The position numbers and the translations under genes are program-made. The notes under the pieces were generated by a model. The model was given only the letters and a program-made list of their open reading frames with translations, did not search any database and was not told where the DNA came from. From Armatimonadota bacterium (GTDB taxonomy: Bacteria > Armatimonadota > Armatimonadia > Armatimonadales > Armatimonadaceae), in the NCBI GenBank assembly GCA_043754515.1, contig JAYUUO010000001.1, positions 538 to 64,537 on the forward strand: a stretch of 64,000 nucleotides of DNA. Reading direction: 5' to 3'. Positions 3,948-39,627 of the stretch are shown here, in pieces (positions within the stretch are counted from its first letter, which is position 1; every line of letters begins with the position of its first letter).

Positions 3948-3976
3948 TTGACTTTGTGTATAAATTACATTATCAT
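3948..3976 (+). promoter_or_regulatory. sigma70-like promoter candidate
   Basis: TTGACT (3948-3953), 17 nt, TATCAT (3971-3976), in an AT-rich divergent intergenic region about 40 nt upstream of ATG 4019. GGAAGGA repeats lie before the start. Confidence 0.45.
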
Positions 3977-4018
3977 AGTCGTGTAGGAACGACGGAAGGA
4001 AACGGAAGGACGAAAGCA

Positions 4019-4819: not shown

Positions 4820-4835
4820 GGCGCGGCTGACTGGC

Positions 4836-4866
4836 GGCGCGGGCACTACAATTCGGTGCCCGCGCC
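4836..4866 (+). terminator. GC-rich hairpin after the hydrolase gene
   Basis: Perfect 11-bp arms GGCGCGGGCAC / GTGCCCGCGCC with a 9-nt loop, 17 nt after the stop. There is no clear U-tract. It covers the GTG at 4856, which argues for ATG 4883 as the vWA start. Confidence 0.4.
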
Positions 4867-4882
4867 AGAGAGACTTATAACA

Positions 4883-5849: not shown

Positions 5850-6725
5850 ATGATACACGGGGATGCCGCGTTTCGGATCGGTAAGACACACACGGTTTGC
5901 GAGGATTATGCCATTGCGCGAACCGACGATCAGACCGCTCGCGCAAGCGTATGGCTCTCGGACGGCTGTTCATCAAGCCCGCATACCGACATCGGGGCGC
6001 GGCTCCTGGTCCACACCGCGGCGGCGCGGGTGGGCGAGTTCAAGGCGGTAGCAACTGGCGAGGCGTCATGCCGCGTTGCATCCCTAGATGGTTTAATCGC
6101 TACTATAATGATGCACGCTGTCACGGGTGTCGAACATACTGGTTTGCCAACCGACTGCCTCGATGCCACGCTTCTCGGTCTGGTCGCCGGGGATACGGGC
6201 GCGGTTCATGCGATCCTGTACGGAGACGGGGCAGTTATTTGGGGTTTGCGGGACGGCAGCCGGATCGTGTACCGCTCGCGGTATCCGGCGAGTTTCCCGT
6301 TCTACCCCGCATATGTCGGCGACGTGGACCGGCGGGCGCGCTGGGAGCGGACGCCGGACAACGGGCAAACGCTCACCCGCACAGTTCTGGAGCCGGACGG
6401 AGCGGTATGCGACGAGGAAACGAGTTGCCCGGACGAGGGCAGTCATTTGCTGTCGCATTCGTGGGACGATTTGTGCTGGGCGGCGGTGGTGTCGGACGGC
6501 ATCGAATCGTTCCAGCAAGTCGGCAATGGGACCGGGCGCGCGGCCACGTCGGTCGGCTACCTGGATGTGCTACGCGAACTGACGGCGTTCAAAAACTTCC
6601 GGGGCGAGTTCGCGCGCCGCCGGGTGCGGGCGTTCGCGAAAGACGCCGACCAGCGCGGCTGGCACCACAACGACGACCTCTCGATAGCGGCATTGTATTT
6701 CGGCGATGGCAACCCCACCGAGTGA
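5850..6725 (+). CDS. PP2C-like Ser/Thr protein phosphatase
   Basis: GKTHTVCEDY, WLSDGCSSS and VVSDGIESF (metal-binding Asp/Gly motifs of PP2C_2-type phosphatases). GGAGAGGGAAG lies upstream of the ATG at 5850. Confidence 0.8.
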   Translation: MIHGDAAFRIGKTHTVCEDYAIARTDDQTARASVWLSDGCSSSPHTDIGARLLVHTAAARVGEFKAVATGEASCRVASLDGLIATIMMHAVTGVEHTGLPTDCLDATLLGLVAGDTGAVHAILYGDGAVIWGLRDGSRIVYRSRYPASFPFYPAYVGDVDRRARWERTPDNGQTLTRTVLEPDGAVCDEETSCPDEGSHLLSHSWDDLCWAAVVSDGIESFQQVGNGTGRAATSVGYLDVLRELTAFKNFRGEFARRRVRAFAKDADQRGWHHNDDLSIAALYFGDGNPTE

Positions 6726-6751
6726 ATCGAGCGCGGGGAAGGAGTTACACA

Positions 6752-8452
6752 ATGGATCTTTCGATAAACGGTAAAACGCGGATCACGCTGTCGCCGTCCG
6801 ACTTCAAAGCGGCGGGCGGCGAGGGCGCGGTCTACGTCAAGTCAGGCACCGCCTTCAAGCTATACGGGCAGGGGGACGCGAATGGAAAGTTCGTGTTCGC
6901 CCCTAAGAAGATGATCCCCGAGGGCAAAATCCAGGAGCTAGGCACGCTGTCCGCCGCCGACATCATACGCCCGCAAGAGATACTACGCGACAAAGGGGGC
7001 ACGGCGGTCGGCTACACGATGCGAGCGGTGCCGGACGCCGTACCGCTCTGCCAGCTCTTCACGAAGTCGTTCCGCGATCGTTACCACGTCTCGCCTGATT
7101 GCGCGCTGGATCTGGTTCAGAAATTACAGGCGGGCGTCCGGCACGTCCACGAACGCGGCATCCTGATCGTGGACCTGAACGAAACCAACTTCTTGGTAGA
7201 TACGGGGTTCCAGCACGTGTTTTTCATTGACGTAGACTCGTACCAGACCGCGCACTACCCCGCCACCGCCATCATGGAGTCCGTGCGTGACCGCCATAGC
7301 CGGACATTCAGCGAGGGGACGGACTGGTTCTCGTTCGCCCTGATCAGTTTCCAGATGCTGGTCGGTATCCACCCGTTCAAAGGCAAGCACCCCGATCTGC
7401 AAACGCTGGACGAGAGGATGAAGGCGAACGTCAGCGTGCTAAACCCCGCCGTTCGCGTCCCCGGTGCCTGCCAGCCGATCAGCGTCTTACCGGCGGTCTA
7501 CCGCGATTGGTACGAGGCGGTGTTCGAGCGCGGCGAACGCGTGCCGCCCCCGAACTTGCTGATGTCCGTGATCGTCGCCTCGCCGACCATCACGCAGGTG
7601 CCCGGCTCGGACAACTTCCTGATCAAGAAACTGCTGACGTACGACGGCGCGATTATCGCGGTGGTCGGCGGCAACGTCCTGACCACGCGCGGGGTCTGGG
7701 CGGGCGCGCATCGGCAGGGGGCGGCTCCCGTCGGCGCGGTGCTGGGCGTCACCCCAAATAACCATCCAGTAATCGGGTGGCTCGACGGCGACCGTTTGCG
7801 CCTCACCGACGTCACGCGGCAACAGGAAATCGCGCTGGACGTCAACGTGGAGGCGATCATGGCGACGGGCGGGTATATCTACGCGCGGCAAGGCGACATG
7901 CTGGTGGAAGTCTCGCTGACGGAGATGCCGAACCGACTGCTCGCGAGCGTGACGGTGGTTGGGAACGTACTGGGGCAGGCGACGCAACTCTTCGAGGGCG
8001 TCGCCGTTCAGAGTCTGCTCGGTGCCACGTACCTCGGGCTACTGCCGGGCGGAGGGCGGTTCCACGAGATCCGCGCCCCGGAACTGGACGGCTACCGAAT
8101 CGCGGATGCCCGGTTCGAGCGTGGGGTTCTGGTGGCGGTCGGGCAGAACGGGCAGGGACGCTACGACCGTTTCGTGCTCCGCTTCAACGACACCCTGACG
8201 CACTACGACACACGCGACACCCCGGACGTGTCCCCGACCGGCGTCAACTTCGCGGTGCTCGACACCGGGATCGTCGCGCTACTCGGCGAGGACGAACATC
8301 TCGAACTGTTCGCCAAACTCCCCGGCTCGCCCGCCGTGAAAAAGATCGGCGACAAGGGGATTGACGGCTCATGCCACCTGTTCGCGCGGGGAGCGCAAGC
8401 ACTGATCGCGCGGGGTGACGCGCTGTTCAACATCACGCGGAACACGCCGTGA
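6752..8452 (+). CDS. Ser/Thr protein kinase-like protein with about 330-aa C-terminal beta-rich region
   Basis: The true start is ATG 6752 (GGAAGGAG upstream), inside the long ORF 5897-8452. Motifs: GGEGAVYVK, AFKLY, HERGILIVDLNETNFLV, FFIDVDSY, TDWFSFALISFQMLVGIHPF. Confidence 0.8.
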   Translation: MDLSINGKTRITLSPSDFKAAGGEGAVYVKSGTAFKLYGQGDANGKFVFAPKKMIPEGKIQELGTLSAADIIRPQEILRDKGGTAVGYTMRAVPDAVPLCQLFTKSFRDRYHVSPDCALDLVQKLQAGVRHVHERGILIVDLNETNFLVDTGFQHVFFIDVDSYQTAHYPATAIMESVRDRHSRTFSEGTDWFSFALISFQMLVGIHPFKGKHPDLQTLDERMKANVSVLNPAVRVPGACQPISVLPAVYRDWYEAVFERGERVPPPNLLMSVIVASPTITQVPGSDNFLIKKLLTYDGAIIAVVGGNVLTTRGVWAGAHRQGAAPVGAVLGVTPNNHPVIGWLDGDRLRLTDVTRQQEIALDVNVEAIMATGGYIYARQGDMLVEVSLTEMPNRLLASVTVVGNVLGQATQLFEGVAVQSLLGATYLGLLPGGGRFHEIRAPELDGYRIADARFERGVLVAVGQNGQGRYDRFVLRFNDTLTHYDTRDTPDVSPTGVNFAVLDTGIVALLGEDEHLELFAKLPGSPAVKKIGDKGIDGSCHLFARGAQALIARGDALFNITRNTP

Positions 8453-8518
8453 CCTGGGCCGATTCGGATGAATGGGAGTGGGGGCGGACGATGCGCTTGC
8501 GGCGTGGGAGTGCGGGCG

Positions 8519-8743
8519 ATGAATCGCACACAGTTCGTGCTATCCGCACTGAGGCGCGGCTTCGACATCGGCGCGGGCGATGTCCGTTTTCTCGAAGACG
8601 CATTCGTCGAATATCTCAACCATCCGGTATTCGAGCGATGGGTTTACTATGTCGCCCCCGGCTGTTATGAAATCTATAAAATGTCCTACGACCCACTCGT
8701 CGCCGTCAAAGAAGTCCTCACAACTGTAAAACATACAACTTAA
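8519..8743 (+). CDS. hypothetical small protein
   Basis: ORF 8468-8743 (alternative ATGs at 8468 and 8519), downstream of the kinase on the same strand. No recognisable motif. AT-richer than its surroundings. Confidence 0.3.
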   Translation: MNRTQFVLSALRRGFDIGAGDVRFLEDAFVEYLNHPVFERWVYYVAPGCYEIYKMSYDPLVAVKEVLTTVKHTT

Positions 8744-8791
8744 CGCTCGTATCCCATACCAGGAAGCACGCTCCCACTCCGTCCCCTGATC

Positions 8792-9085
8792 TCATTCATG
8801 CCACCCGGCAGGAGGAAATGATACAGAAGGGCTGCCCAACCTGATCAATAAACTGTTGCATCGCTTCAGAATACCCACGCGAATATGGACGACCTCGGCT
8901 TCCTCCGCAACGCCACAAAGACGCTCCGCTTCGTCCACCAGAGGCAACATATCCTCCGGAAGGAATCCACACTCCCGAAGCGACATGGCCATGAACTTCA
9001 CGACTCTGGGTGCATCTTCGTCGCTGTATCCTACAGCCGGATCCTCGTCCGAGAGTTTTTGACAGTGGTCAAATAAGGTGATCAT
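8792..9085 (-). CDS. hypothetical acidic protein (97 aa)
   Basis: ORF on the track. Its ATG overlaps the stop of the upstream small ORF (ATGA at 9082-9085). No recognisable motif. Confidence 0.4.
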   Translation of the reverse strand: MITLFDHCQKLSDEDPAVGYSDEDAPRVVKFMAMSLRECGFLPEDMLPLVDEAERLCGVAEEAEVVHIRVGILKRCNSLLIRLGSPSVSFPPAGWHE

Positions 9086-9270
9086 AATGTAACACCCATA
9101 CTCGACTCTTCCTTCATCACCGCATCACCTCTGACTATATTGGATGGGGCCTGGAAGAACACGAAATGGAGGCGCATCGCCTCTAGCCGCGCGACGATGG
9201 GGTGCTGGGGCTTCGCCCTGAAGCGGTCGAAGAACCTGCTAATCATCGTGCCACTTTGGGTCGTTCGCAT
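9082..9270 (-). CDS. hypothetical small protein (54-62 aa)
   Basis: Short ORF packed between the 150-aa and 97-aa ORFs. An internal ATG at 9246 would reduce its overlap with the upstream gene. Support is positional only. Confidence 0.25.
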   Translation of the reverse strand: MRTTQSGTMISRFFDRFRAKPQHPIVARLEAMRLHFVFFQAPSNIVRGDAVMKEESSMGVTL

Positions 9271-9691
9271 CCCGCTCGAAGTCCGCCTTGCTCCCGAACC
9301 CTAACGCTTCAACCCGGTCGAAATACGGCGTGTAGACAGTCACGTCGTCCTGTTCCAAATTCTGTACGCCCCAGATGGATTCGATCACCCATTCGAGCCA
9401 GCGCGCGGGCGGCGGGTACTTGCGGAAGTAGGCTATACGAGTCGCTTCATCGAACTGCTTTCCCTCCCGCCAATGGGCGAACGCCATCATATAGCTTTCG
9501 CCGCCGCCCATTCGCCACCCGATGCTGTACGGGTGACAATCCTCCTGGTATATCCACGGCGGCGGGACGTCTCCATGCGCGACGACGAGTTGCCGAACCT
9601 CATCCTCAACACCGAGCACTTCGGAGTCGCTTGTTACATCTGCCGCTGTTCCCTCTGTATTCGGCAACTCCGTGATTTCCTGCACACCCAA
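9239..9691 (-). CDS. hypothetical acidic protein (150 aa)
   Basis: ORF with a TTG/GTG start. The motif PPPWIYQEDCHPYSIGWRMGGGESYMMAFAHW looks like a folded domain, but I cannot assign a family. Confidence 0.45.
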   Translation of the reverse strand: MGVQEITELPNTEGTAADVTSDSEVLGVEDEVRQLVVAHGDVPPPWIYQEDCHPYSIGWRMGGGESYMMAFAHWREGKQFDEATRIAYFRKYPPPARWLEWVIESIWGVQNLEQDDVTVYTPYFDRVEALGFGSKADFERDANDPKWHDD

Positions 9692-9921
9692 CGACCGAAG
9701 ACGGTCAGCCTCTTTATGCGTGACGTGTGAGGGCGTCTAACTCCATGCTGTAAATCCAGACGTGTTCGGAAACCTCATCACCTTCTTCTAAGAGGATTCG
9801 GAGGTCATCTTTGGCTCCACGGGCCAATCATCAATATCTTCCATGAAAGACACAGGTATCTACTTCTCCTGTTGCGCCATGTCCGGGGGCGCGGTCCGTC
9901 GCGCCCTCATCCCGACTCCGT

Positions 9922-11826
9922 TTACGCTCGCGTCTGCTCCACCGCCTCCGGCGCGTAGTGAATATCCCGCGCCGCGATCTCGGCGGTCAAGTCCGCCACG
10001 AACTGGTCGAGCGGCTTCGGCCCCAGGTCGCCGCGCTCGCGCTGGCGCACCGCCACCGTGCCGTTCTCGATGTCGCGGTCGCCGATCACGAGCATGTACG
10101 GCACTTTGGCGACCTGCGCCTCGGCGATCTTTTTGCCCGTCTTCTCCGACCGGGTGTCTACCGTGGCCCGTACCCCCGCCTCGATCAGCCGCTGCTTGAA
10201 TACCTCGCACCATCCCACGTGCCGATCCGCGATCGGTAGCAAACGTACCTGCTCCGGCGCGAGCCACGTCGGGAACGCGCCCGCGTAATGCTCGATCAGG
10301 AACGCGATCATGCGCTCCATCGTGGACAGGTAGCCGCGATGGATCATCACCGGGCGATGTGGCTTCGAATCGTCGCCGATATATTCCAGCTTGAACTGAG
10401 CGGGGAGGTGGCGGTCCACCTGCACCGTGGAGACCGTCTCCTCGCGCCCCAGTACGTTCCGTAACTGAATGTCAATCTTCGGGCCGTAGAACGCCGCCTC
10501 GCCGACGCCCTCGTAGAAGGGCAGATTTAGCTCCGCGAATACCTCGCGCAGTTCGCCTTCCGCCGTGGCCCATAGTTCGGGATTGTTCACATATTTTTCG
10601 CTGTTCACCGGGTCGTGGAGCGACAGCCGGTACCGGTACTCTGAGATACCAAGACGACGGTATGCGTCCTCGATCAGTAGGATGCTCTTTTTAACTTCCT
10701 CTTTGACCTGATCCTCGCGACAGAAGATGTGTGCGTCGGAGAGGGTCATGGCGCGGACGCGGGACAGGCCAGAAATCTCCCCGGCCTTTTCCCAGCGGAA
10801 CATCATCCCGAGCTCCGCGTAGCGCACCGGCAGCTCGCGATACGAGCGCATTTCGTTCTTGAAGATCTGGATGTGGTGCGGGCAGTTCATCGGGCGCAAC
10901 ACGAACTCCTCGTTGTCAATCTTCATCACCGGGAACATGCTGTCTTTGTAGTGCTCCCAGTGCCCCGAAATCTCGTACAGGTGCTTATGCGCCAGCACCG
11001 GCGTGTAAACGTGCTCGTAGCCGTTTAGCCGCTCCATGTCTTGCAGGAACCGCTCCAGCGTCATGCGGACCGCCGAGCCGTTTGGGAGCCAGAGAGGCAA
11101 TCCTGGCCCGATCTCGCCCGACGTCGCGAAGATGCCGAGTTGCTTTCCGAGCACCTTGTGGTCGCGTTTCTTCGCCCCTTCGAGCCGCTCCAAGTGTTCG
11201 GCGAGTTGCGTCTTTTTATCGAACGCGACGCCGTAGATGCGCGTAAGTTGGGGGTTCTTCTCCGAGCCGCGCCAATAAGCACCGGCGATGCTCATCAGTT
11301 TGAACGCGCCGACGCGCCCGGTGCTGGCGATATGTGGCCCCTTGCACAGGTCGGTAAAATCGCCCTGTGTGAAGAAGGAAATCTCCGCCTCGTCCGGCAA
11401 ATCGTCAATCAGGGCGACCTTGAACGGCTGCCCCTCCGCCTCGAACCGGGCGCGGGCTTCCTCTCGGGAGACGATGGAGCGTGTCAGCGGCAGGTTCTGC
11501 TTCACGATGCGTGCCATGCGCTCCTCAAGAGCGGGCAGATCGTCGGGCGTCAGCGGGCGAGAGAACTTGAAATCGTAGTAGAAGCCGTTCTCGATCACCG
11601 GCCCGATGCCGAGCTGGGTGTCAGGAAATATTTCTTGCACGGCTTGTGCGAGGACATGCGCGGTGGTGTGCCGCATGCGGGACACGAAATCGGACGGCGC
11701 GTCCGTCGCGGTTGCTTCTCGTTCCTGATCGGCGGGGGTATCGGTTTGGGCGTTCGGCGATTCGGCGGGCGGCACGGCGGGCGAGGCGTCCGGCGCGCCG
11801 CCATTCATAACTTCGGGCATAAACAT
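9922..11826 (-). CDS. thrS: threonine--tRNA ligase (TGS domain absent)
   Basis: Collinear with ThrRS from RHTTAHVLAQAV...GPVIENGFYYDF through the class II core and anticodon-binding domain. Start placed at MFMPEV (ATG 11824-11826). TAA stop. Confidence 0.93.
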   Translation of the reverse strand: MFMPEVMNGGAPDASPAVPPAESPNAQTDTPADQEREATATDAPSDFVSRMRHTTAHVLAQAVQEIFPDTQLGIGPVIENGFYYDFKFSRPLTPDDLPALEERMARIVKQNLPLTRSIVSREEARARFEAEGQPFKVALIDDLPDEAEISFFTQGDFTDLCKGPHIASTGRVGAFKLMSIAGAYWRGSEKNPQLTRIYGVAFDKKTQLAEHLERLEGAKKRDHKVLGKQLGIFATSGEIGPGLPLWLPNGSAVRMTLERFLQDMERLNGYEHVYTPVLAHKHLYEISGHWEHYKDSMFPVMKIDNEEFVLRPMNCPHHIQIFKNEMRSYRELPVRYAELGMMFRWEKAGEISGLSRVRAMTLSDAHIFCREDQVKEEVKKSILLIEDAYRRLGISEYRYRLSLHDPVNSEKYVNNPELWATAEGELREVFAELNLPFYEGVGEAAFYGPKIDIQLRNVLGREETVSTVQVDRHLPAQFKLEYIGDDSKPHRPVMIHRGYLSTMERMIAFLIEHYAGAFPTWLAPEQVRLLPIADRHVGWCEVFKQRLIEAGVRATVDTRSEKTGKKIAEAQVAKVPYMLVIGDRDIENGTVAVRQRERGDLGPKPLDQFVADLTAEIAARDIHYAPEAVEQTRA

Positions 11827-23685: not shown

Positions 23686-26600
23686 ATGCTAAACCCACAA
23701 CTAGCTGCAGAGCGGCTAAAAGAGTTTTCCGTGGACGGCGGTGTCGCGCTCCAGAAGGCGCGAATCGCAAACTTCCCCGGCGCGTTCCGCGAATCCGCGC
23801 TCGCGTTGCTCGGCCTGAAAAGTGATGGAACACCTTTCATTCAAGAAGGCAACTACAACAGCAATGCGTATCAGGCTTTGAACAAGGCGCGGGACGCGGC
23901 GAACAAGCAACTTGACATGCTCAACGTGGCCGAACTGGAAACATTCTTCGGCGCGTTTTTTCCGCGAATGGGCAGTCTTCTCGCCGCGTGGTGGAAACCA
24001 GAAGGCAGTAGCCTGTATCAGGGCATGAGCAACCGGCGACCGTTCCGCATGGATCGCGGCGCACAAACGGACGAAGCGCGGCAAGAGCGGCGCAACATCC
24101 TGTCAACACTCATCAGTGGCTTTACGCAGTACCAAGAGATGTCGCTCGATTGGTTCGCCGCGTGGGTGCCGTACCTCGGCGCGTATCACGCCGACACTTT
24201 CAGCAAGTTGTTCGCGTTCGCGATTGACCGGAACGACGAACTCGGCGACGCCGTTTTCCACACCCTGCTCGAATCCGGCAAGGGCGAGCACGAGATAGGG
24301 GCGATGGGGCGACATGTCACGCGCGGTCTGCTCTCGGCCTCTCGCGAAGAGGGTTGGGAGTGGGTCGAAAAGCTACTCCTCGCGGCTCAGCGTCAGGAGG
24401 GCTTGCGGCAGTCGGTGCTCGAAGTCATAGACGAGGCGAACCCGCTCGCATTTCGCCGGATGCTCAAACTGATCCGCGAGAACGACCTATTCCGTTTTTC
24501 CGCGACGATCCGCGCCGCCGACACTTGGTTCGGAATGAACTGGGTCGCGTACGAGAAGTTATCCGTCAAAGCCGCGAACGCCGCCACCGAGACAGTGGAA
24601 ACGTTCCTGCTCGATCCCGCCGGGCGCGACGCCGTTCGCGCTGAGACGACGGACGGGCAGACCGTGTACCTCGCGCTATGGGCGACAGCGTTCGACGATG
24701 CGCACGCGGCACTCCGCGCGGCGGTGCCACTTCTCTCCGACCCTCTTCTCGTCCGTCGGTACGCCGCGCTCCATTTGCTGATCGAACTGCGGATGAAAGA
24801 AACGCGACCGGCGATCCTCGCCGCGTTTGACGACCCCGATCTGCGAATGTCACAGAAAGCGTTCGGCGCGGGCAACTGGTACGAAAGCGCGGACGCAGAT
24901 GGCTTCGACGTTCTCGCCGTCATGATGCAGGAGCAGAACGCCCTCGTGACCGAGGCACTGGAGGCGAGTGAAAATAACGCATCCGGGGCGGTGGCGACTT
25001 TCTTCCACGGCTTGAAGGACGCTGTGAGCGGGCTTGTGCAGACGCTTTCCCCTGCGGTCGTGCCCCCACCCCCTAGCCCCCTCCCCCGCTCCGCAGGAGA
25101 GGGGGAACTGGATGCGGAGAGCGTCAGCACCTCGCGGGACGGAACTCCCGCAGGCGAATTTACACTCGCATCCAGTTCCCCCTCTCCTGCGGAGCGGGGG
25201 AGGGGGCTAGGGGGTGGGGGCACGACTGACGACAGGTTCGAGCGCATCGAGCGCAACATCGGGCGGTTCCCGGTTCGTGCCAAAGAACTGGAGCCAGTCA
25301 TTTGGGAGTGGGACAAACTCACCGCCCACGCCGAATCACTCGCGGACCGGTTGCCGAACCTGCTCGGGAAGCGTCCTGTCGAGCGGCTGTTCCCGTTTGT
25401 GAAGATGATGAGTAGCTACGGGCGCTCTACCATCGCCTCCACTATCGCGAACCGCAAAGACAAAACGCCCGAGATGCGCGAACTGCTCTTCGACCTGTTC
25501 GCCGACGCGCAGTCGTACGTCCGCGACGCCGCGCTGAAAGCCGTGGATAAGTTCGACATTACGGAGCCGGAAGCGGAACGGATCGAGGGACTGTTGACGC
25601 GCAAAGCCGCCGATCTGCGTAAGGCGAGTTTGACGCTTCTCCTGAAGCGTGATGATGACGCCGCCCTCGCGTCCGGCGAGCGGCTTACCGCCGCCAGGGA
25701 CAGTAATCAGCGCGTCGCCGGTCTCGATCTCCTGACCCAGATGGTGGAGAGGAAGCGGCAACCGGCGCGGGCGCGAGGCATCGTAACCGCGTTCGTCGCG
25801 GCTCGCGCGGACAAGATCACGCCCGCCGAAAAAGCGATGACGGAGCCGCTTACGAGCGACACGCACGAGAAGGCGACGCTTGAGAACGCACTCGGTCTGC
25901 TCGACATGACGAAGCTCTCCCGCTTCGGCCCGCCGACAATGCCGATCCCCGTGCCTGATTTGGAGGGATGCGCCGCAACACCGATCCTCTACGCTCTTGA
26001 AGCCCTCATCGAAAAGCACAAAGAAGCCGAAGTCAAATCTCCCTACAGCGATGAAGATACTTATCTTCTTGGTACCAATGCATACTGGTTTCCGTCGCCA
26101 CGTATGGATATGCCGCTTGAAACGGACATTGAACGGCTTCCCCTGCGCGACATATGGACGGACTTCTGGCAACAACGCCCTGCCGAACTGCGCGACCCCG
26201 ATGGGCGCGAACTGATGCGAGCGCAGGTCGCCAAAGCCAAAGCGAATGAAAAAAAGTTTAACCACTCGCCCATTATCCTGGACTTGCTAAAATGGTTCGA
26301 GCGGATGGACACCAGCCGCGATCTGCATAGCGATACGGAGTTTATTCTAGCCGCCGCCGAGTATCAGATCGTTAGCGTTCCCGAATCAATTCGCGGCTCG
26401 ACAGCGCACGGGATTATCAAAGGGGAAGCGGTGGATTGGCGTAGCACCATGCGTGGCAAGTGGAACTGGTACGCCGTCTTGCAAGACCATGTCGAAGCGC
26501 ACGGTGATGATTGGACGCCGGAGCAGATTAGTCGTGCCTTCCGTCTCGCGCGGTACGTTGACCGCCCCTACAAGAAAGCGGTCTCGAATCCGGTCCCGTT

Positions 26601-28962
26601 TGCGCTCATAGTCAAAGCGTTCCTGCATGGCTTCGCTAACGACGCCGACCTGTACCGCGCCCTCCTACCGGAGCCAAATGCGCGCAAAGAGAACGAATAT
26701 TACCGTGAACAAGTCTTCAACGGACTCGCGGAACTTTCCGGGCGCAAGGTTCCACTTTTCGACACCCCCCCCAGCTTACGCGAGATAGTGGACGCCGTGC
26801 GCCGCCGCGTTCTCGAGATCGAACTTCGGCGCGGCGACACCGAAACTGCCGCCTCCCACCCCGCGCTCGCACTGCGCTACTCGGGCGGCTTGGACGTGCT
26901 GGTGAAGACCGTTGCCGCGTTCGGGAAAGAGACGTTCGCGCGGGGCTACTCCTACTACGGGGCGGCGAACCGGTCCAACGTTTTCAGCCGCATCATCCGC
27001 GCCACGTTCCCGCGCCCGGAGGACACGTTCGAGGCGTTCGCTCAAGCGGTGAAGGACGCGGGCATTCCCGAAAAACGGCTGGTGGAGATTGGCGTGTATG
27101 CGCCGCAGTGGGCAAAGCACGTCGCGCATACGCTCGGCTGGGACGGCCTTGTGGAGGGCATCTGGTGGTTCCATGCTCACACCAAGGGCAACGATTGGTC
27201 GGTAAACGCTGAACTAAAGGAGACATGGACGGCAGAGATTGCTGACAAGACGTCGCTCACCGCCGCCGACCTCACGGAAGGGGCAGTGGACGTGCAGTGG
27301 TTTTACCGGGTCTACGCGGCACTGGGCAAGGCGCACTGGAAGATGCTCGACGACGCGGCGAAGTACGCAAGTTCGGCGGGTGGGCATAAACGGGCACAAC
27401 TGTTCGCGGACGCGCTACGCGGCAACATCTCCCGCGCCGAACTCCTGGCGCGGATTGTGGACAAGCGAAATCAGGACGCGATCCGCGCGCTCGGGTTGGT
27501 CCCGTTTGCGGACGAAGGAGAGGATAAGGACGCGGATCTCCTGCTTCGCTACAAAGCGTTGCAAGAACTCCTACGCACGTCGAAAACGTTCGGCGCGCAA
27601 CGTCAGGAGTCGGAGAAGTTGTCCACGCGCATCGGGATGGAGAACCTCGCCCGAACCGCCGGGTACGCCGACCCGATCCGCCTGACGTGGGCCATGGAAG
27701 CCGCCGCCGTGGAAGATTTGAAACAGGGCGCGGTCACGAAGACGGTAGGGGACGTTTCGGTATCACTCTCGATAAACGACCTCGGCATGCCGGAACTCGC
27801 GGTGGTCAAGAAAGGCAAAACGCTCGCGAATATCCCGCCCGCTGTCAAGAAGGATGAGGAGGTCGCGACGCTTTCCGCCCGAAAGATTGAGATCACGCGG
27901 CAGGTTTCGCGGATGCGCGAGTCGCTGGAGAACGCGATGTGCCGTGGCGATGAATTCTCCGGCAAGGAACTGGGGGAGCTACTGGAGCATCCGGTCTTGC
28001 GCCCGCTACTCCGCAATATGGTGTTCGTCGAGGCGGAGGGGCGCGAGGCCGTAGCCGGTTACCCCCGAACAGGGGAGAAGGGTGTCACGTTGTCGGACCA
28101 TGCGCACCAGACTTATGCCATCGCTCCCGACACCATGCTCCGTATTGCGCACCCGTACGACCTGCTGCAAACGGGGGTTTGGGACAAGTGGCAGAAGGAC
28201 TGCTTCCTGAGCGAGCGGGTCCAGCCGTTCAAGCAGGTGTTCCGCGAGTTGTACGTGCTGACCGATTCCGAGACGACCGACGGCACGAAGTCGCGGCGGT
28301 ACTCCGGACATCAGGTGAACCCGAAGCAAGCCCTCGCGCTTTTCAACAAGCGCGGGTGGATCGGGGGCGGCGAGTACGACTACGACGGCGACGGGCCGCG
28401 CAAGACGTTCCACGAGGACGGCTACACGGTGTCGGTGAGTTTCATGGGCTACACGGCGACGCCGGCGGATGTCGAGGGACAGACGCTGGAAGAGGTGCGG
28501 TTCACGAAGAAGGGCGAGTGGAAGCCCGTCGAACTGAAATCGGTCCCGCCCCGCGTGTTCAGCGAAGCCATGCGCGACCTGGATCTCGTGGTATCGGTGG
28601 CTCACGTCGGCGGGGTGGACCCGGAGGCGTCCCAGAGCACGACCGAGATGCGGGCCGCGCTACTGCGGGAGATGCTAGGGTTGCTCAAGATCGAGAACGT
28701 GCGCCTCGAAAAGACGCACGCGCTCATTGATGGCAAATTGGCTACCTATAGCATCCACCTCGGCTCGGCGGTGGCGCATCGGCAACCGGGCGGCTACCTG
28801 TGTATCGTGCCGGTACACAGCCAGCATCGCGGGCGCATCTTCCTACCGTTCGTGGATTCCGACCCGCGCACGGCGGAGGTGATGTCGAAAGTCATCACGC
28901 TCGCGAAGGATAGCGAGATCAAGGACCCGACGATCCTGGAGCAGATCCTCGCGGTGCGGTAG
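23686..28962 (+). CDS. 1758-aa DUF4132-type protein (MolR/YehH/YehI-like), helical-repeat N-terminal region
   Basis: C-terminal core LRIAHPYDLLQTGVWDKWQKDCFLSERVQPFKQVFRELY matches my recollection of the DUF4132 signature (HP..L...W...QPF.Q..RE.Y). The N-terminal two-thirds is long and alpha-helical. Confidence 0.75.
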   Translation: MLNPQLAAERLKEFSVDGGVALQKARIANFPGAFRESALALLGLKSDGTPFIQEGNYNSNAYQALNKARDAANKQLDMLNVAELETFFGAFFPRMGSLLAAWWKPEGSSLYQGMSNRRPFRMDRGAQTDEARQERRNILSTLISGFTQYQEMSLDWFAAWVPYLGAYHADTFSKLFAFAIDRNDELGDAVFHTLLESGKGEHEIGAMGRHVTRGLLSASREEGWEWVEKLLLAAQRQEGLRQSVLEVIDEANPLAFRRMLKLIRENDLFRFSATIRAADTWFGMNWVAYEKLSVKAANAATETVETFLLDPAGRDAVRAETTDGQTVYLALWATAFDDAHAALRAAVPLLSDPLLVRRYAALHLLIELRMKETRPAILAAFDDPDLRMSQKAFGAGNWYESADADGFDVLAVMMQEQNALVTEALEASENNASGAVATFFHGLKDAVSGLVQTLSPAVVPPPPSPLPRSAGEGELDAESVSTSRDGTPAGEFTLASSSPSPAERGRGLGGGGTTDDRFERIERNIGRFPVRAKELEPVIWEWDKLTAHAESLADRLPNLLGKRPVERLFPFVKMMSSYGRSTIASTIANRKDKTPEMRELLFDLFADAQSYVRDAALKAVDKFDITEPEAERIEGLLTRKAADLRKASLTLLLKRDDDAALASGERLTAARDSNQRVAGLDLLTQMVERKRQPARARGIVTAFVAARADKITPAEKAMTEPLTSDTHEKATLENALGLLDMTKLSRFGPPTMPIPVPDLEGCAATPILYALEALIEKHKEAEVKSPYSDEDTYLLGTNAYWFPSPRMDMPLETDIERLPLRDIWTDFWQQRPAELRDPDGRELMRAQVAKAKANEKKFNHSPIILDLLKWFERMDTSRDLHSDTEFILAAAEYQIVSVPESIRGSTAHGIIKGEAVDWRSTMRGKWNWYAVLQDHVEAHGDDWTPEQISRAFRLARYVDRPYKKAVSNPVPFALIVKAFLHGFANDADLYRALLPEPNARKENEYYREQVFNGLAELSGRKVPLFDTPPSLREIVDAVRRRVLEIELRRGDTETAASHPALALRYSGGLDVLVKTVAAFGKETFARGYSYYGAANRSNVFSRIIRATFPRPEDTFEAFAQAVKDAGIPEKRLVEIGVYAPQWAKHVAHTLGWDGLVEGIWWFHAHTKGNDWSVNAELKETWTAEIADKTSLTAADLTEGAVDVQWFYRVYAALGKAHWKMLDDAAKYASSAGGHKRAQLFADALRGNISRAELLARIVDKRNQDAIRALGLVPFADEGEDKDADLLLRYKALQELLRTSKTFGAQRQESEKLSTRIGMENLARTAGYADPIRLTWAMEAAAVEDLKQGAVTKTVGDVSVSLSINDLGMPELAVVKKGKTLANIPPAVKKDEEVATLSARKIEITRQVSRMRESLENAMCRGDEFSGKELGELLEHPVLRPLLRNMVFVEAEGREAVAGYPRTGEKGVTLSDHAHQTYAIAPDTMLRIAHPYDLLQTGVWDKWQKDCFLSERVQPFKQVFRELYVLTDSETTDGTKSRRYSGHQVNPKQALALFNKRGWIGGGEYDYDGDGPRKTFHEDGYTVSVSFMGYTATPADVEGQTLEEVRFTKKGEWKPVELKSVPPRVFSEAMRDLDLVVSVAHVGGVDPEASQSTTEMRAALLREMLGLLKIENVRLEKTHALIDGKLATYSIHLGSAVAHRQPGGYLCIVPVHSQHRGRIFLPFVDSDPRTAEVMSKVITLAKDSEIKDPTILEQILAVR
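25057..25226. repeat. 170-bp palindromic element embedded in-frame in the giant CDS
   Basis: Arms 25057-25116 and 25167-25226 are perfect reverse complements (60/60, checked base by base), with a 50-bp spacer. It is translated as VVPPPPSPLPRSAGEGELDA...SSSPSPAERGRGLGGGGTT. Confidence 0.9.
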
Positions 28963-32847: not shown

Positions 32848-35800
32848 ATGGCTGAACCTTTAGATGAACCCGTAACTCCCGCCTCTACTCCCGACGCCTC
32901 CGGAGCGGCAGTCCTCGATACCCCGGCCCCCGCGCGCAGCTTATCCGCGTACGACGGCCCTGCGATTGACATCGCCGGCGAACTGCGCACGTCGTACCTC
33001 GGCTACGCGATGAGTACCATCGTGTCCCGCGCTCTACCCGACGTACGCGATGGCCTGAAACCAGTGCAACGCCGCATCCTGTACGCGATGCGTGAACTCG
33101 GGCTGTCACCGAACTCCCGGCACTTGAAGTCCGCGAAGGTTGTGGGCGAGTGCTTCGTCGCCGGTACCCGTGTGGCGACCCCAACCGGTTTGAGACGGAT
33201 CGAGGATTTACAAGTTGGTGACGTGGTATGTACGCAGTCCGGTGTTCGCGCCGTGACTGAGGCTTATGTCATGCCCGAGCAACCGCTTCTCGATGTCGAA
33301 CTCGGTAGCGGGCGCAACGTGTTTTGCACTCCCGGTCAATGCTTTAAGGTGCTGATGCCCGATCTGTCCACGATTTGGAAGCGGGCGGATGAACTCGTGC
33401 TGGGCGATAATGTCGTTACACGTGGCGGCACGACGGCGCGGGATGTACCCGCATCTGCTTCCTACCCTACTGTTGATGGCGTCGGCATTGACGAAGATAT
33501 GGCATACCTCCTCGGATTCTTTCTCGCGGATGGCTGGGTGGACCGGGATAATAAACGTGGTTATCGTCGTCTGGCTTTCGCTGCGGTGGAACGCGCCATC
33601 ATCGAACGTATTCAGGATATATTGACACGCAAATTCGGCGTGACTGCTTCGATCACGGGGCGGGGCAACATGTTCAACCTGCGCGTCAATAACTCCGCCC
33701 TTAATCGCCTCATCATCAACACCTTTGGATTGGAGGAGAAGCGGGCCGGCAATATATCCGTCCCGGAATTATTGTTTGACGCCCAAGCGGAAGTGTTGTA
33801 CTCGTTTGTTTCCGGCTTTTCGGATGGCGACGGTTCAGTACATAAGTCTCGCAACATGATGGTGCTGACCACGATTTCACGCCCATTCTTGCACGACCTC
33901 AGCGTTCTGTTGTTCGCCCGGAGCATTCACAGTCGCCTCCTTCCTTACGATAAAGTGGGCGGCAATACGGAGTACGCGCTCGAGATCGGTAGTCGCTCAC
34001 TCCATGAATTGGGTCAGAACCTGACGCATTCGCATCCCTTTAAGGCGGAGCGGCTCGCCGCGATTCTGGCATCTGGCAATTACCAGCCTGAGAAAGCGAC
34101 AAAGATTCCTTACCTTGGGGCTTTGCTACTAGACGAGTTCCGCGAGAAACATCTAGGCGGCGGGTGGTACGCTGGTGCCGGAGGCGAGAAGGTACGTTCA
34201 GGGTTGAAGTATGCTAACGGTGTAAAAATCAGATACAGTTCTGAGATAAACGAATCATTCGTTGTCTCAATGGACAGTCTGAACACGGTCGGGCTACTGG
34301 CCAAAATGACATCCATCGGCTCGCGCTACCTCGACCTGCTAACACAATGGGAGCGGGATGGGGTGGCTTTTCACCCCGTCAGGGCCGTTCGTCTGGCTGC
34401 CTCCGAAGTAACCTACGACATCCAGGTCGAAGGGGAGCACGAGTTTGTCGCGAACGGGATGATCGTCCACAACTGCATGGGGAACTTTCACCCGCATGGC
34501 GACCAGGCTTTATACGGCACGATGGTGCGTATGGCGCAACCGTTCTCGCTCCGCTACCCGATGGTAGACGGGCAAGGGAACTTCGGCTGTTTTACCGGTG
34601 ATACTAAAATCAAGTTGCTCGATGGCACGGAGAAGTCTTTCGCGGAGCTTTCTGCCCTACCGGAGGGGGAGATCTTTCACGTATATTCCGCCGATAAACA
34701 CGGGCGTATCGTCGTTGGCGAAGGTCGTCACTCTCGAGTGACACGAAGCAACGCGTCACTAGTTCGCGTCACACTCGACAACGGTGCTACGATCCGCTGT
34801 ACCCCGGACCACCGCTTTCTGTTGCGGAACGGTGAGTATAAAGAGGCGCGACACCTGACGCCGGATGACAGCTTCTTAGCTGGCTACTTCGATACGGCTC
34901 CGGTCAAGCCGGGGTTGAACCCGTACCTGCGTGTGCAACAACCCATCACGGGCGAATGGGAGTTCGTGCATTGGCTTGCGGACGAATTCAACGCGGACAG
35001 GGGAATTTCCAGTGGGAGTGGCAAGGCGTTCGTTCGTCACCACATCAACTTTAACCACTTTGACAACCGACCCTCGAATATTGACCGCATGGGGTTTCTG
35101 GAGCATCTGCACCTTCATGCCGAACACATGGCGGCTCTCTGGGAAGATCCCGCTTTCCGCGAGACACAGCATGCGGGTGTTGTTCGTTACTACAATGATA
35201 ACCCCCAGGCCCGTGAGTCGCGCCGCAAGCATATGATCGAGCAAAACACAGATCCCGCATTCCGCGCCGCGAACGGGGCGAGGGTCGCGCTGCCATTACG
35301 AGAGCGGTACGCAAATGACCCCGAAGCCCGAGCGATATTGTCGGAGCGTATGAAGGCGTTGTGGGCGGATGATGAATACCGCGCGAAGATGAGCGACGCC
35401 CTGAGTGGCATTGAGAAGCGCCCGCTCACTGTGGCGCAGCGGGCTGAGGTATCCCGCGTCGTCGGTGAAAAAAGTCGCGCCATGTGGAGTGATGATGCAA
35501 AGCGCGAGGAGATCATCGCCGCGATTGTTTCCGCGATGGCGTCTCCTGAACTACGTGAACGGTTGCGCGAGAATGCCCGCGCCATGTGGCAAGATCCGGC
35601 GTACCGCGCCCGGTTTAGTCCTACTCACCACAAGGATATGGCAACGACTCTCTGGAGCAGGCCAGAAACGCGCGAGATGCACCGCGAGAAGGTCGCGGGA
35701 CAATGGCAGGAGGAGTCGTTCCGGGTCGCTCAGCGCGACGGGGTACGCATCAGCAACGCCCGCCGCCTCGTAGCGAATCCGGGGCAGATGCACGAGATCG

Positions 35801-38800
35801 CTCAACACGCCGCGACCGCGTTGAAAGTCAAGTGGCAGGATGACTCCTACCGACAGCGCGTAATACGTGGCCGAGTGTGCCGCTACGTGTCGGGTCTGAT
35901 AGCCCGACACGGTGCCGGCGGCGTGACGCCGGAAGTCTACGAATCGGGGCGCGACGGCGGGTGGATACCGCGTCTGCCTAACGCCCTAACTTACTTCGAT
36001 GACTTCGACGAGATTGTCCGAGTCGCGCAAACTTACAACCACCGTATCGTGCGTGTTGAAGCCATTGAGGATACTGAAGACGTCTACGACATCACGGTTG
36101 ATGAACACCACAACTTCCTACTTTCAGACGGCGTTTTCGTCCATAATTCGGTAGATGATGATCCACCGGCCGCCATGCGCTATTGTATAACTGCCAATAA
36201 CCTGGTAGTGACGGCTGACGGTCTGGTTCCTGCCGGGGCGTTGGCGACGACGGAGGATATTTCGACCGCGATACTATCGCTCGACGGTAAGGTGAACACC
36301 GCGAGTAAATGGTTCGACTGCGGGGTATTTCCGGTGCGGACGGTGCGAACCAAGCGTGGTTATGAAGTCACTGGGACAACGAATCACCCACTACTGGTAT
36401 GCACCCCCGACGGCGACAAGCGCACCAGCCTCGTGTGGAAGACAATCGCTGACTTATCTGTCGGCGACTATGTCGTGCTCGATAGGAGCGAAACGCTGTT
36501 CCCCGACGCCCCGATTCATCTTGCGGCGCACTACCCCCGCTCATCCGAGCGTTCAACGGCAACCCAGCACGATCTGCCGACGCACCTGGACGCTGACTTT
36601 GCGTTCCTGTTGGGCGCGCTCGTCGCCGAGGGCACGTGTCGCTCTTCGTGCGTCGAGTTCTGCCATTTGCCCGGAAACTACGCGGACGAGTTCGCTTTGG
36701 CTTGGGCGAGAGTATTTCCGACTTGTCGGTTGCACATGTTCAACCGCGAACCAACCGGCTATGGCAAAAAGCCGTTCTTGCAGATGCAGTGCGTCAGCCA
36801 GCACGTCATCGGGTTCCTGGACGCATTGGGGCTACGCGGCAAGTCCGCCGAGCGGCTCGTGCCGGATGTCGTTCTTCGCTCGCCGCAAGCGGTGGTGTCC
36901 GCGTTTCTGCGCGGACTCTATGAAGGTGACGGGGCGGTGGAGCGTTCCGGGCGCAGTCTGCTTCGCGTCAACCTGTGCGCGAAAAGCCGGGCGATGTTGC
37001 GACAGGTGCAAACCGCTTTGCTCCGCTTCGGCATCGTTTCTACTCTGAACGCTGAAGCGAAACGGGGTACTTACCGCTTGTTGATCGTGGGCGAGGATAA
37101 CCTGCGACGATTCGCGGACAAGATAGGCTTCGTGTCGGAGGCGAAACGGGCCGCCCTCGCGGATGCGTTAGCGACGTATACAACGGGCCGCGCCCTCTCG
37201 CAGACTGATTTCATGCCTTTCCTGGCAGACTTTGTGCGTGACAGCGCGGCAAGTGGGAACCGCGAGTGGCTGGGCAAAAATAACGTCGATCGACCGGACC
37301 GATTGGGAAAGGCGTTGCCACGTCTCGCGCAAGACTTGCCCGCCGCCGATTCAGCGCATGTCGAGAGTCTGGCGCGTAACCGCTACCTGTTCGAGCCGGT
37401 GGTCGCTATCGAGGACGCGGGCGAGCAGAACGTCTACTCGATCCGCGTGGACAGCGAATGCCACTCGTTCGTCGCGAACGGGTTTATCAACCACAACACG
37501 GAGGCACGCCTGACCGCCGTCGCAATGGAGATGATGGAGGACATCGAGAAGGACACGGTGGACTTCAAGCCGACGTACGACAACGAGCGGCGCGAGCCGA
37601 CTGTGCTACCCGGCAAGTTCCCGTACCTCGTCTGCAACGGCGGGAGCGGGATCGCGGTCGGCATGGCGACCAACATGCCGCCGCACAACCTGCGCGAAAT
37701 CTGCGACGCCAGCGTCTACCTCCTGGAGCACCCGGACGCGAGCATCGAGCAACTGATGCAGTATGTCCCCGGCCCCGACTTCCCGACTGCCGGGCTGATC
37801 CTCGGCAGCAAGGGGATCAAGGCGGCCTACCACACCGGGCGCGGGCAGGTCACGATGCAGGCTAAGACTACTATCGAGCCGATGGACGGCGGCAAGCATG
37901 TGATCGTGATCTCCGAATTGCCGTATCAGGTGATCAAAAAGAAACTTGAAGAGCAGATCGGCGACCTCGTCAAGGAAAAGAAGATTGACGGGATAACCGC
38001 GGTGCGCGACTATTCCGACAAGTCCGGAATGCGCCTAGTGGTCGAACTACGCCGGGACGTCATGCCGCAGAAGATCCTGAATTATCTGCTCAAGCACACG
38101 CCCCTCCGCCTGAACTTCGGCGTGATGATGATTTCGCTCGCCGAGGCGGGCACGTCGCCCAAAACGCTCTCGCTGAAGACCATTTTGCAGGAGTATCTGG
38201 ACCACCGGCGCGACATCATCACAAGGCGCACCCGCTTTGAGCTCGCGCGGGCGAAGGCACGGGCACACATTCTAGAAGGCTTGCAGATCGCCGTGCAGTT
38301 CCTGGACGAGGTGATCGTGATCATCCGCGCCAGCAATAGTACGGAGCAGGCGCGTTCCCGGCTGATCGAGCGGTTCCTGTTCAGCGGCTTGCAAGCGGAA
38401 GCGATTTTGAACATGCAGCTCCGCCAACTGACGTCGCTGGAGCAGGGCAAGATCGAGGACGAGTTCAAAGATCTTCTGAAGGAGATCGGACGGTTCGAGG
38501 ACATCCTGATGGACCCGCGCCGCGTCAACATGATGATCAAGGCGGACTTGAAGTATCTGAAGGACAAGTTCGGCGACGACCGGCGCACGAAGATCATCCC
38601 GACGGAAGCCGAAGAGATCAACATTGAGGATCTAATCGCTGAGGAGGAGATGCTGATCACGGTCACCCGCGACGGGTACATCAAGCGCCTAGATTTTGGC
38701 ACCTTCCGGTCTCAGAAACGCGGCGGGCGCGGCGTGTCGGCGGGTAAGACACGCGAGGAAGATAACTTCGAGCTTCTTTTCCGCGCCTCGACGCACGACT

Positions 38801-39627
38801 ACATCCTGTTCTTCACCGACCGTGGACGCGTGTACCGGCTCAAGGCATTCGAGGTGCCGCAAACGTCGCGACAGGCGATGGGCACCGCGATCATCAACCT
38901 GATCAACATTCAGCCCGACGAGAAGATCACCGCGACCGTGCCGATCCGCGACTTCCGCACCGCCGAAGGCTTCCTGCTGATGGTGACCGAGCGCGGCGAG
39001 ATCAAGCGCACGGCGGTGGCCGAGTACGCCAACCTGCGGGCGAACGGCTTGGTGACGTTCGACCTGGAGGACAACGACGCGCTGAAGTGGGTCAAGCATA
39101 CGCCGGGCACCGCTGAGGTGATCCTGACCACGGTACGCGGAATGGCGATCCGCTTCCCAGAGGATAAGGTGCCGACGCGCGGCAGGGCGGCGGGCGGCGT
39201 GCGCGGGATCATGCTCGACAGCCCCGACGATAAGGTGGTTTCCGCCGACGTCGTGATCGGGGACGCGGACGCGCAGGAACTACTTGTAATCAGCGAACTC
39301 GGACTCGGCAAGCGAACCCCGCTCGCCGCGTACCGGTCGCAGGGACGGGGCGGCAAGGGGCTGATTACGATGAACCTTTCCGGCGACCGGACCGGCAAGT
39401 GCCTGATGGTGGCGACAGTGGTCTCGAAGGAGTCCGAGCCGAACCTGCGCCTCCTGATCGTCACCGAGAATGGCGTGATGATCCGCATGAAGGCGGAGGA
39501 AATCAAAACCACGGCGGGTCGCTCGACTTCTGGCGTGCGGCTGATCAATCTGGGCGAGGGTGACCGCGTGAAGACGGCCGAGGTGATTGACCTATCTAAG
39601 AACGCCGAAGAGGCCGAGGACGTGTAG
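32848..39627 (+). CDS. gyrA: DNA gyrase subunit A precursor carrying three inteins
   Basis: The exteins join to a collinear GyrA of about 860 aa: [19 protein letters not shown]...KSAKVVGE | [38 protein letters not shown] | [12 protein letters not shown] | TEARL...[14 protein letters not shown]... Confidence 0.95.
33151..34473 (+). mobile_element. intein 1 (441 aa) with LAGLIDADG homing endonuclease
   Basis: Starts CFVAGTRV and ends GMIVHN, followed by Cys+1. LAGLIDADG motifs are [10 protein letters not shown] and [12 protein letters not shown]. The block B position reads TPGQ rather than T-x-x-H. Confidence 0.9.
34588..36147 (+). mobile_element. intein 2 (520 aa) with HNH endonuclease and tandem W-x-D-x-x-[YF]-R repeats
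   Basis: Starts [13 protein letters not shown], has block B CTPDH, and ends GVFVHN followed by Ser+1. HNH motif: [29 protein letters not shown]. About nine repeats such as [27 protein letters not shown] and KWQDDSYR. Confidence 0.9.
36184..37497 (+). mobile_element. intein 3 (438 aa) with LAGLIDADG endonuclease, at the classical GyrA site after the catalytic Tyr
   Basis: AAMRY | CITANNLVV...TTNHPLL...[10 protein letters not shown]...[12 protein letters not shown]...VANGFINHN | TEARL. This is the same junction as the mycobacterial GyrA inteins (AMRY | CITGD...HN | TEARL). Confidence 0.92.

Follow-up and report, generated by a model that had tools for sequence, protein, structure and literature searches.

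The window analyzed here is the whole stretch of 64,000 nucleotides from contig JAYUUO010000001.1 of an uncultured Armatimonadota bacterium, and it carries a gyrA gene, encoding the A subunit of DNA gyrase, whose open reading frame (ORF) is interrupted by three inteins. It is highly probable, from the sequence evidence described below, that this gyrA of the Armatimonadota was invaded independently by three unrelated mobile inteins at neighboring conserved codon boundaries, and that all three are spliced out of the protein. The gyrase cleavage core would then be rebuilt by three protein-splicing events, two of which lie only 12 residues apart. Gyrase A is an essential protein and the target of fluoroquinolones. 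An earlier note on this DNA had proposed a similar arrangement and was essentially correct, while it overestimated the novelty: each element, each site and triple occupancy are already known from public sequences, and no new kind of element is involved. The gene is an unusually crowded case among gyrA inteins and multi-intein replication proteins, both of them known kinds, and the points of specialist interest are the 12-amino acid (aa) spacing of full-size inteins and a splicing block B devoid of His.

Three inteins in the gyrase cleavage core

The earlier note had placed three inserts at 33151-34473, 34588-36147 and 36184-37497, each starting with Cys and ending with His-Asn, and translation of the ORF confirmed these positions to the base. 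The inserts are referred to here as I1, I2 and I3, and their order within the gene is as follows (slashes mark insertion points).

32848..39627, + strand: gyrA precursor ORF, 2259 aa plus stop, with a DNA_topoisoIV match (E = 8e-137) and six DNA_gyraseA_C blades
32848..33150, + strand: N-extein, aa 1-101, ending with ...KSAKVVGE (E. coli residue 72)
33151..34473, + strand: I1, 441 aa, CFVAGT...MIVHN/C, between VVGE and CMGNF, +1 Cys; matches to Intein_splicing and LAGLIDADG_3
34474..34587, + strand: extein between I1 and I2, 38 aa (E. coli 73-110), core of the quinolone-resistance region
34588..36147, + strand: I2, 520 aa, CFTGDT...VFVHN/S, between GNFG and SVDD, +1 Ser; matches to Intein_splicing and TIGR models, and an AlphaFold model
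36148..36183, + strand: extein between I2 and I3, 12 aa, whose final codon (TAT, 36181-36183) encodes the catalytic Tyr (E. coli Tyr122)
36184..37497, + strand: I3, 438 aa, CITANN...FINHN/T, between AMRY and TEARL, +1 Thr; matches to Intein_splicing, LAGLIDADG_3 and GyrA_w_intein
37498..39624, + strand: C-extein, 709 aa, from TEARL... to the end, with the GyrA box QKRGGRG at 38713-38733

All three inserts are in frame, each of the six junctions falls at an exact codon boundary, and neither a stop codon nor a frameshift occurs along the 6.8 kb of gyrA. The inteins make up 1399 of the 2259 residues of the ORF (61.9%, against about 62% in the note). In line with the prediction of a restored GyrA of about 860 aa, removal of the inserts gave an uninterrupted protein of exactly 860 aa with the junction text that the note had quoted. 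The extein-bearing ORF exceeded the NCBIfam equivalog cut-offs for gyrA, with scores of 1016 vs. 902 for PRK05560 and 986 vs. 877 for TIGR01063. Further, alignment of the N-terminal part of the extein with the complete E. coli GyrA (6rks_A), at an offset of -29, needed no gaps over the region that holds the three sites and placed I1 at 72/73 (site 1), I2 at 110/111 (site 2) and I3 at 122/123 (site 3) in E. coli numbering. In E. coli GyrA, Tyr122 is the catalytic residue and residues 67-106 form the quinolone-resistance-determining region (QRDR); site 1 therefore lies within the QRDR, site 2 four residues beyond it and site 3 directly after the catalytic Tyr. On the DNA, 114 bp separate the insertion points of I1 and I2, and 36 bp those of I2 and I3.

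Each insert, taken singly, exceeded the cut-off of the Pfam model Intein_splicing (PF14890; 35.8 bits), with scores of 53.9 (I1, E = 2.3e-14), 68.7 (I2, E = 6.6e-19) and 47.9 (I3, E = 2e-12), which upheld the claim of three inteins within about 50 extein residues. The whole ORF matched the same model over three stretches (E = 5e-46), and TIGR01443 (intein_Cterm) matched both I1 and I2. The splicing residues are present in I1, I2 and I3 alike, namely Cys1, Thr in block B, Asp and His in block F, His-Asn at the C-terminal end and the nucleophile at +1. They were invariant across the alleles of I1 (n = 26) and I2 (n = 31), counts that include the window's own copies. In the I3 alignment (87 sequences), strict invariance was limited to Cys1, the His of block F and the C-terminal His-Asn, with Thr and His of block B conserved in at least 70% of the alleles but below 100%. 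Block B reads TPGQ in I1, TPDH in I2 and TTNH in I3.

I1 and I3 share 25% identity, and I2 aligns to either of them over approximately 35 C-terminal residues only; judged by these alignments, the three have no relationship to one another outside their terminal splicing blocks. The only DNA repeat among them, 36 nt long and 81% identical, encodes the common ...FVANG...HN motif. Profile scores and conserved residues confirmed the three inserts, far beyond chance, as bona fide inteins of three unrelated families.

The extein itself, by its sequence, encodes a working GyrA, as indicated by the equivalog cut-offs, the presence of the GyrA box and a ratio of non-synonymous to synonymous substitutions (dN/dS) of 0.016-0.08 against relatives, to which it is 89-94% identical. 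The GC content at third codon positions (GC3) was 0.63-0.72 in the inteins, 0.68-0.78 in the neighboring genes and 0.85 in the C-extein, the latter value being consistent with strong codon bias without proving it. These properties bear on the idea that this gyrA copy is dead or redundant and that a second, intein-free gyrA elsewhere supplies gyrase. It is true that our view covers 64 kb and that some bacteria carry a second type II topoisomerase A subunit. However, the ORF is open over its entire length with every splicing residue intact, the catalytic Tyr is retained, as is the GyrA box, the extein is constrained as just described, the C-extein has the highest GC3 of the genes measured in the window, and relatives with one or two of these inteins show the same pattern. 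A dead allele is therefore very improbable.

Architecture of the individual inteins

The note had recognized the third site as the classical one of mycobacteria, which was borne out. I3 is inserted between Tyr and Thr at 122/123, that is, at the same point after the catalytic Tyr and with the same +1 Thr as the mycobacterial GyrA inteins (Mxe, Mle; PDB 1AM2; NF038098), and it is homologous to the Mycobacterium xenopi (Mxe) GyrA intein 1am2 over both splicing halves (E = 2.5e-21). Given the shared site and this homology, I3 is allelic to the classical mycobacterial gyrA intein. In block B (TTNH) and in the C-terminal blocks (VYSIRVD...), I3 is closely similar to the Mxe intein, and it retains the AMRY/TEA flanks native to the mycobacterial inteins. 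Unlike the Mxe intein, which is a mini-intein, I3 keeps a full LAGLIDADG domain (LAGLIDADG_3, PF14528, E = 2.9e-21) and resides in a host from the Armatimonadota. I3 also matched the NCBIfam model NF038098 (GyrA_w_intein) with E = 1.8e-59; the whole protein stayed below the cut-off of this model (1117 vs. 1850) because I3 shares its gene with two further inteins. The two nuclease motifs of I3 are located as follows.

36598..36639, + strand: first LAGLIDADG motif of I3 (VAEG), conserved in the I3 alignment
36895..36939, + strand: second LAGLIDADG motif of I3 (YEGDG), with D-G invariant across the I3 alignment

An apparently intact homing endonuclease had been attributed to each of the three inteins. 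This stood for I1 and I3, both of which have LAGLIDADG domains, but not in the same form for I2, where Pfam gave no LAGLIDADG match and an HNH-type motif is followed by about 250 aa of repeats.

35029..35118, + strand: HNH motif of I2 (I2 residues 148-177), recognized by phrog_7545, invariant residues and predicted topology
35134..35859, + strand: W-x-D/E-x-x-F/Y-R helical repeat array of I2, a putative DNA-binding module with six motif copies

The splicing parts of I2 matched the TIGR models intein_Nterm (E = 1e-10) and intein_Cterm (E = 1.6e-7), and its N-terminal 173 aa matched NF052663 (RtcB_rel_intein2, NCBIfam) with E = 5.8e-44. As for the nuclease, phrog_7545, annotated as 'HNH endonuclease', gave a weak match to aa 149-190 (E = 1.5e-5), and residues R150, H151, H152, N160, N164 and H177 (RHH...N.P.N...H) were invariant in 31 alleles that are 36-78% identical. 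The AlphaFold model of I2, with a mean predicted local distance difference test (pLDDT) score of 85, shows a strand-strand-helix arrangement at 149-152, 165-168 and 170-184. On the basis of the PHROG match, the invariant motif and this predicted topology, I2 is described here as an HNH-type intein with a repeat array, and its nuclease is likely of the HNH type. The model is all-helical over aa 170-441 (about 250-270 residues); the repeat region was matched by phrog_22215, of unknown function (E = 4.5e-10), and the predicted array probably binds DNA. When the I2 model was used as a Foldseek query, the top matches were all HINT inteins, solved structures among them, and no match to the nuclease or the repeat parts was obtained. 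HNH-type inteins were first recognized by Dalgaard et al. 1997, as cited in PMC8966425. Like those represented by NF052663, I2 combines a HINT domain with an HNH-type motif, but it is extended by helical repeats of the form W-x-D-x-x-Y-R, about 250 aa in all, for which Pfam gave no matching family.

In I1, LAGLIDADG_3 (PF14528) matched two stretches (E = 3e-19). Besides I1, the set of matches contained 25 full-length site-1 alleles, the closest of which is 71% identical, and comparison with them delimited three conserved elements.

33310..33345, + strand: block B of I1, Thr-x-x-Gln, with T60 and Q63 invariant in 26/26 site-1 alleles
33499..33540, + strand: first LAGLIDADG motif of I1, whose acidic D127 is D or E in 26/26 alleles
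33796..33840, + strand: second LAGLIDADG motif of I1, with D225, D227 and G228 invariant in 26/26 alleles

The Gln in place of the usual block B His is thus a property of the whole site-1 family, and it is found as TPGQ even in the site-1 mini-intein of the gyrase A-like protein P0144 described below. Site-1 gyrA inteins may therefore form a possible undescribed group without block B His. A comparable departure in block B is known from the Tko CDC21-1 intein group, in which splicing is normal or compensated (PMC6333167).

Occupancy of the insertion sites in relatives and public sequences

GyrA homologs were surveyed in three sets: the top 120 homologs, the top 150 cluster representatives (from a profile-free search of 1.84 billion such representatives) and 36 metagenome loci. 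The best homologs were GyrA proteins of Armatimonadota metagenome-assembled genomes (MAGs), from the Armatimonadaceae and Chthonomonadales. GFS_9362 (L001), with an extein approximately 91% identical to that of the window, carries a shortened site-1 insert (about 258 aa) together with I2; ES-bin-131 (L004; extein 89% identical) is occupied at site 3 only; and in ES-bin-63 (L035; 83-100% identity over the extein segments) site 2 is empty, the other two sites holding I1 and I3. The hot-spot extein of L035 comprises 50 residues identical in amino acids to those of the window, and the 38-aa stretch is uninterrupted there. Most other Armatimonadota gyrA genes in the set contain no intein.

Across the top 120 homologs, sites 1, 2 and 3 were found occupied each alone and in all pairwise combinations. 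The suggestion that sites 1 and 2 might be undescribed gyrA insertion points had to be abandoned, as both are occupied in many public GyrA of several phyla. Dozens of these proteins carry allelic inteins at sites 1 and 2 (e.g., P0006, P0001, P0004, P0034, P0089, P0098 and P0121), and the named hosts include Chthonomonadaceae, Armatimonas, Bipolaricaulota, Omnitrophota, Herpetosiphonaceae, Wildermuthbacteria and other Patescibacteria. The public alleles at 72/73 and 110/111 sit at the same points and belong to the same families as those of the window (up to 71% identity for I1 and up to 78% for I2), and they share the block B Gln of I1 and the 520-aa HNH-plus-repeat architecture of I2. In contrast to the window, those examined have one or two inteins, never three full-length ones. 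In the literature, no paper naming gyrA sites 72/73 or 110/111 was found, in a search that did not extend to the supplement of PMC4760082, where they may be listed; this gap is not evidence of novelty.

A pattern scan of contigs for the junction formed by the end of I2, the 12-aa extein and the start of I3 retrieved the 36 metagenome loci, at least 30 of which have an uninterrupted N-extein and hence represent sites 2 and 3 without site 1. Recurrence in 36 loci indicates that the 12-aa arrangement of I2 and I3 is tolerated in nature and argues for function in vivo.

Triple occupancy, to which the note had drawn attention, is real in the window, but it is not unique. In P0144, a gyrase A-like protein of 1366 aa, the same three sites are occupied by mini-inteins of about 115, 140 and 250 aa. 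P0154, from a Logan contig of 8,289 nt, likewise contains three inteins, inserted at sites 1 and 3 and at a fourth site (82/83). Three full-length endonuclease-bearing inteins together were found only in this window among the sequences surveyed; no other such triple was present in the top 120 homologs, the top 150 cluster representatives or the 36 junction loci. Taken together, the occupancies in these sequences show that inteins concentrate in GyrA residues 72-123, a hot spot that offers them at least four sites; this is relevant both to gyrA annotation and to the calling of resistance mutations in metagenomes.

P0144 is encoded at 6001-10101 of a 1.3-Mb metagenome contig (L036); the gyrB-like gene next to it occupies 3237-5246 of the other strand. 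Beyond the three shared sites, it resembles the window in its site-2 intein, which starts with CFTGET and ends with FVHN/S, and in its site-3 intein, which ends with ISHN/T. It differs in that all three inteins are shortened, with endonucleases lost or degraded, and in its divergent, paralogue-like host protein with a weak C-terminal domain match. By this comparison, P0144 looks like a late, decayed stage of the same triple invasion, of which the window would be the full-size stage. With regard to P0154, the intein at the fourth site is a mini-intein between HPHGD and Ser (residues about 530-700), and the site-1 intein ends with Met-Asn rather than His-Asn.

The +1 residue of site 1 is Cys in all occupied alleles, while empty alleles mostly have Thr and several have Cys. 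The empty alleles compared were those of L002, L003, L004, L014, L015, L026 and L027 versus L005-L012 (Armatimonadota). A Cys at +1 in an empty allele could be the footprint of a precise intein loss or the mark of alleles that accept inteins.

The same survey bears on whether the inserts could be an assembly chimera of intein-bearing strain alleles. The assembly is of the metagenome type, and relatives that differ in occupancy could co-occur in a sample. Some related MAGs have a run of Ns (L032, about 1133-1147) or a contig break (L035/L029, ES-bin-63) in gyrA at or near the hot spot, which suggests that strain-level intein variation disturbs assembly at this position. Nevertheless, the six junctions are all in frame at exact codon boundaries, no repeat longer than the 36 nt mentioned above is available to mislead an assembler, and every pairwise combination of the inteins exists in independent assemblies. 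Further, the inter-intein exteins (114 and 36 nt) are below read length, so that single reads must bridge from one intein to the next. We regard a chimera as the least probable of the explanations considered, with hardly any likelihood.

Several replication proteins are known to host more than one intein, among them haloarchaeal MCM with four sites (PMC10643990), the Tko DNA polymerase and Pab CDC21 (PMC8966425), and Mycobacterium smegmatis DnaB with two (PMC6195587). The window is like them in the clustering of inteins in the catalytic core, in sporadic occupancy and in the expected mutual influence on homing. It differs in its spacing of 38 and 12 aa, which is tighter than the examples of 85 and 48 aa (PMC8966425), in its host protein, a bacterial GyrA, and in that one of the three nucleases is of the HNH type and not LAGLIDADG.

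Two T4-like portal proteins (P0132 and P0141; four intein stretches each) and a family A DNA polymerase of 3009 aa (P0143; six stretches) also contain relatives of I2, and all three proteins carry HNH_3 domains. Three inteins per protein are therefore not exceptional in metagenomic data, and by their sequences these phage genes with a very high intein load hold the intein family of I2.

At 90% identity, the 2259-aa protein of the window itself is clustered under a 337-aa fragment labelled both Akkermansiaceae and Armatimonadota, and it did not appear in searches restricted to representatives. Other long proteins with several inteins may be systematically concealed in this way.

Splicing, selection and homing

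In the proposed mechanism, a single 2259-aa precursor would be translated and each intein would fold its own HINT domain. The precursor should be inactive, because the inserts break up the QRDR helix and the catalytic Tyr loop, leaving pieces of 38 and 12 residues. Every intein would then follow the class-1 pathway, in which an N-S acyl shift at Cys1 is followed by transesterification by the +1 Cys, Ser or Thr, cyclization of the terminal Asn assisted by the penultimate His and an acyl shift that restores the peptide bond. Whichever of them splices first, I2 and I3 would each meet native flanking residues. The expected product is the 860-aa GyrA, with its QRDR segment and catalytic Tyr intact. 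At the DNA level, the homing nuclease of each intein would cut intein-free alleles and repair would copy the element in, and homing into such alleles is the proposed cause of the patchy occupancy among relatives. Efficient splicing of all three inteins, activity of the nucleases and the status of this gene as the sole gyrA are inferred from these sequence features.

Homing of I1-I3 has indirect support from the sporadic occupancy, from purifying selection and from the conservation of I2, which exceeds that of its hosts. Compared to the closest alleles, the endonuclease domains showed 0.13-0.17 non-synonymous and 0.65-0.9 synonymous differences per site, and the splicing domains gave similar values; since the two patterns are equal, the nucleases appear to be maintained by purifying selection. 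In close relatives, inteins diverge faster than the extein (78% vs. approximately 90% identity). This relation is reversed in distant hosts: the intein was more similar than the host GyrA in 23 of 31 comparisons for I2 (for example, 59% vs. 44-46%), 15 of 89 for I3 and 1 of 84 for I1, which indicates that I2 and some lineages of I3 have spread horizontally. Synonymous divergence, which is higher in the inteins than in the exteins, was also considered as evidence of transfer and was dropped as ambiguous, given that the codon bias of the extein (GC3 0.85) lowers its own synonymous rate.

Some results weigh against three mobile, efficiently splicing inteins. The closest allelic inteins are only 71% (I1) to 78% (I2) identical, values that give no hint of very recent transfer. 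No Pfam HNH model matched I2, whose central region gave only noise at E-values up to 10. Lastly, as the block B His of I1 is replaced by Gln, splicing of this intein may be slow or conditional.

The inteins could be real and yet some or all of their endonucleases could no longer home, the elements being fixed, vertically inherited and slowly decaying, with patchiness arising from losses. Such a history is most plausible for I1, whose identity tracks that of the extein, exceeding it in the single comparison mentioned above, and the closest relatives hold the closest inteins. Mini- or shortened inteins exist at all three sites (P0144, P0007, P0013 and the insert of about 258 aa in L001), which shows that the decay phase of the homing cycle does occur in gyrA inteins, and the Cys at +1 in several empty site-1 alleles, where most others have Thr, is a possible footprint of precise loss. 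However, the endonuclease domains are under strong purifying selection, their catalytic residues are invariant across alleles, and I2 retains its length of 520 aa in many of them. Further, the alleles of I2, and some of those of I3, are more similar than the GyrAs that host them, which is hard to explain without transfer. We consider the loss of homing unlikely, though it deserves serious attention, and three mobile elements remain the preferred explanation.

Splicing of at least one intein, most likely I1, might instead be conditional (on redox state, temperature or another signal), in which case the arrangement would be partly regulatory. Consistent with this, Gln occupies block B in 26/26 site-1 alleles, I1 has Cys both at position 1 and at +1, and the inserts lie in the catalytic core, where an unspliced precursor should be inactive; conditional splicing has also been reported for inteins of replication proteins, such as mycobacterial DnaB (PMC6195587, PMC7360933). 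On the other hand, many close relatives manage without any intein, so none of the three can be required, and the Gln is family-wide over several phyla, which fits compensated normal splicing as in the Tko CDC21-1 group (PMC6333167). Conditional splicing seems rather improbable.

With insertion points only 114 and 36 bp apart, each resident intein may fall in or near the recognition sequence or the co-conversion tract of its neighbor. In haloarchaeal MCM, neighboring inteins interfere with each other, and this shapes occupancy (PMC10643990). By analogy, the three nucleases might be interdependent, through target disruption or co-conversion as a block, with interference shaping occupancy, and ordered splicing, with the His-less I1 as the slowest step, might gate gyrase maturation; we put this forward as a speculation of low probability. 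In any case, the gene offers a compact natural test bed for the folding and splicing of neighboring inteins, for adjacent homing nucleases and for N-terminal activation without a block B His.

Two further observations concern the extein and the surroundings of the gene. Ser83 and Asp87 of E. coli GyrA are the best-known positions of fluoroquinolone resistance substitutions. At 34498-34512, the extein has Gln at the Ser83 position and Gly at the Asp87 position, and the resulting QALYG motif is also found in close Armatimonadota relatives; to judge from the motif, the lineage that carries it may be intrinsically less quinolone-sensitive.

The neighbors of gyrA are ordinary chromosomal genes, with neither gyrB nor further inteins among them in the 64-kb window, and scanning the window for Rfam families and tRNAs gave no matches. 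Upstream, at 23686-28962 on the + strand, lies the gene for a 1758-aa protein with matches to DUF5724 (E = 1e-210), DUF4132 (E = 3e-48) and DUF7737 (E = 2e-37), which is followed by that for a TPR protein and is unrelated to the inteins.

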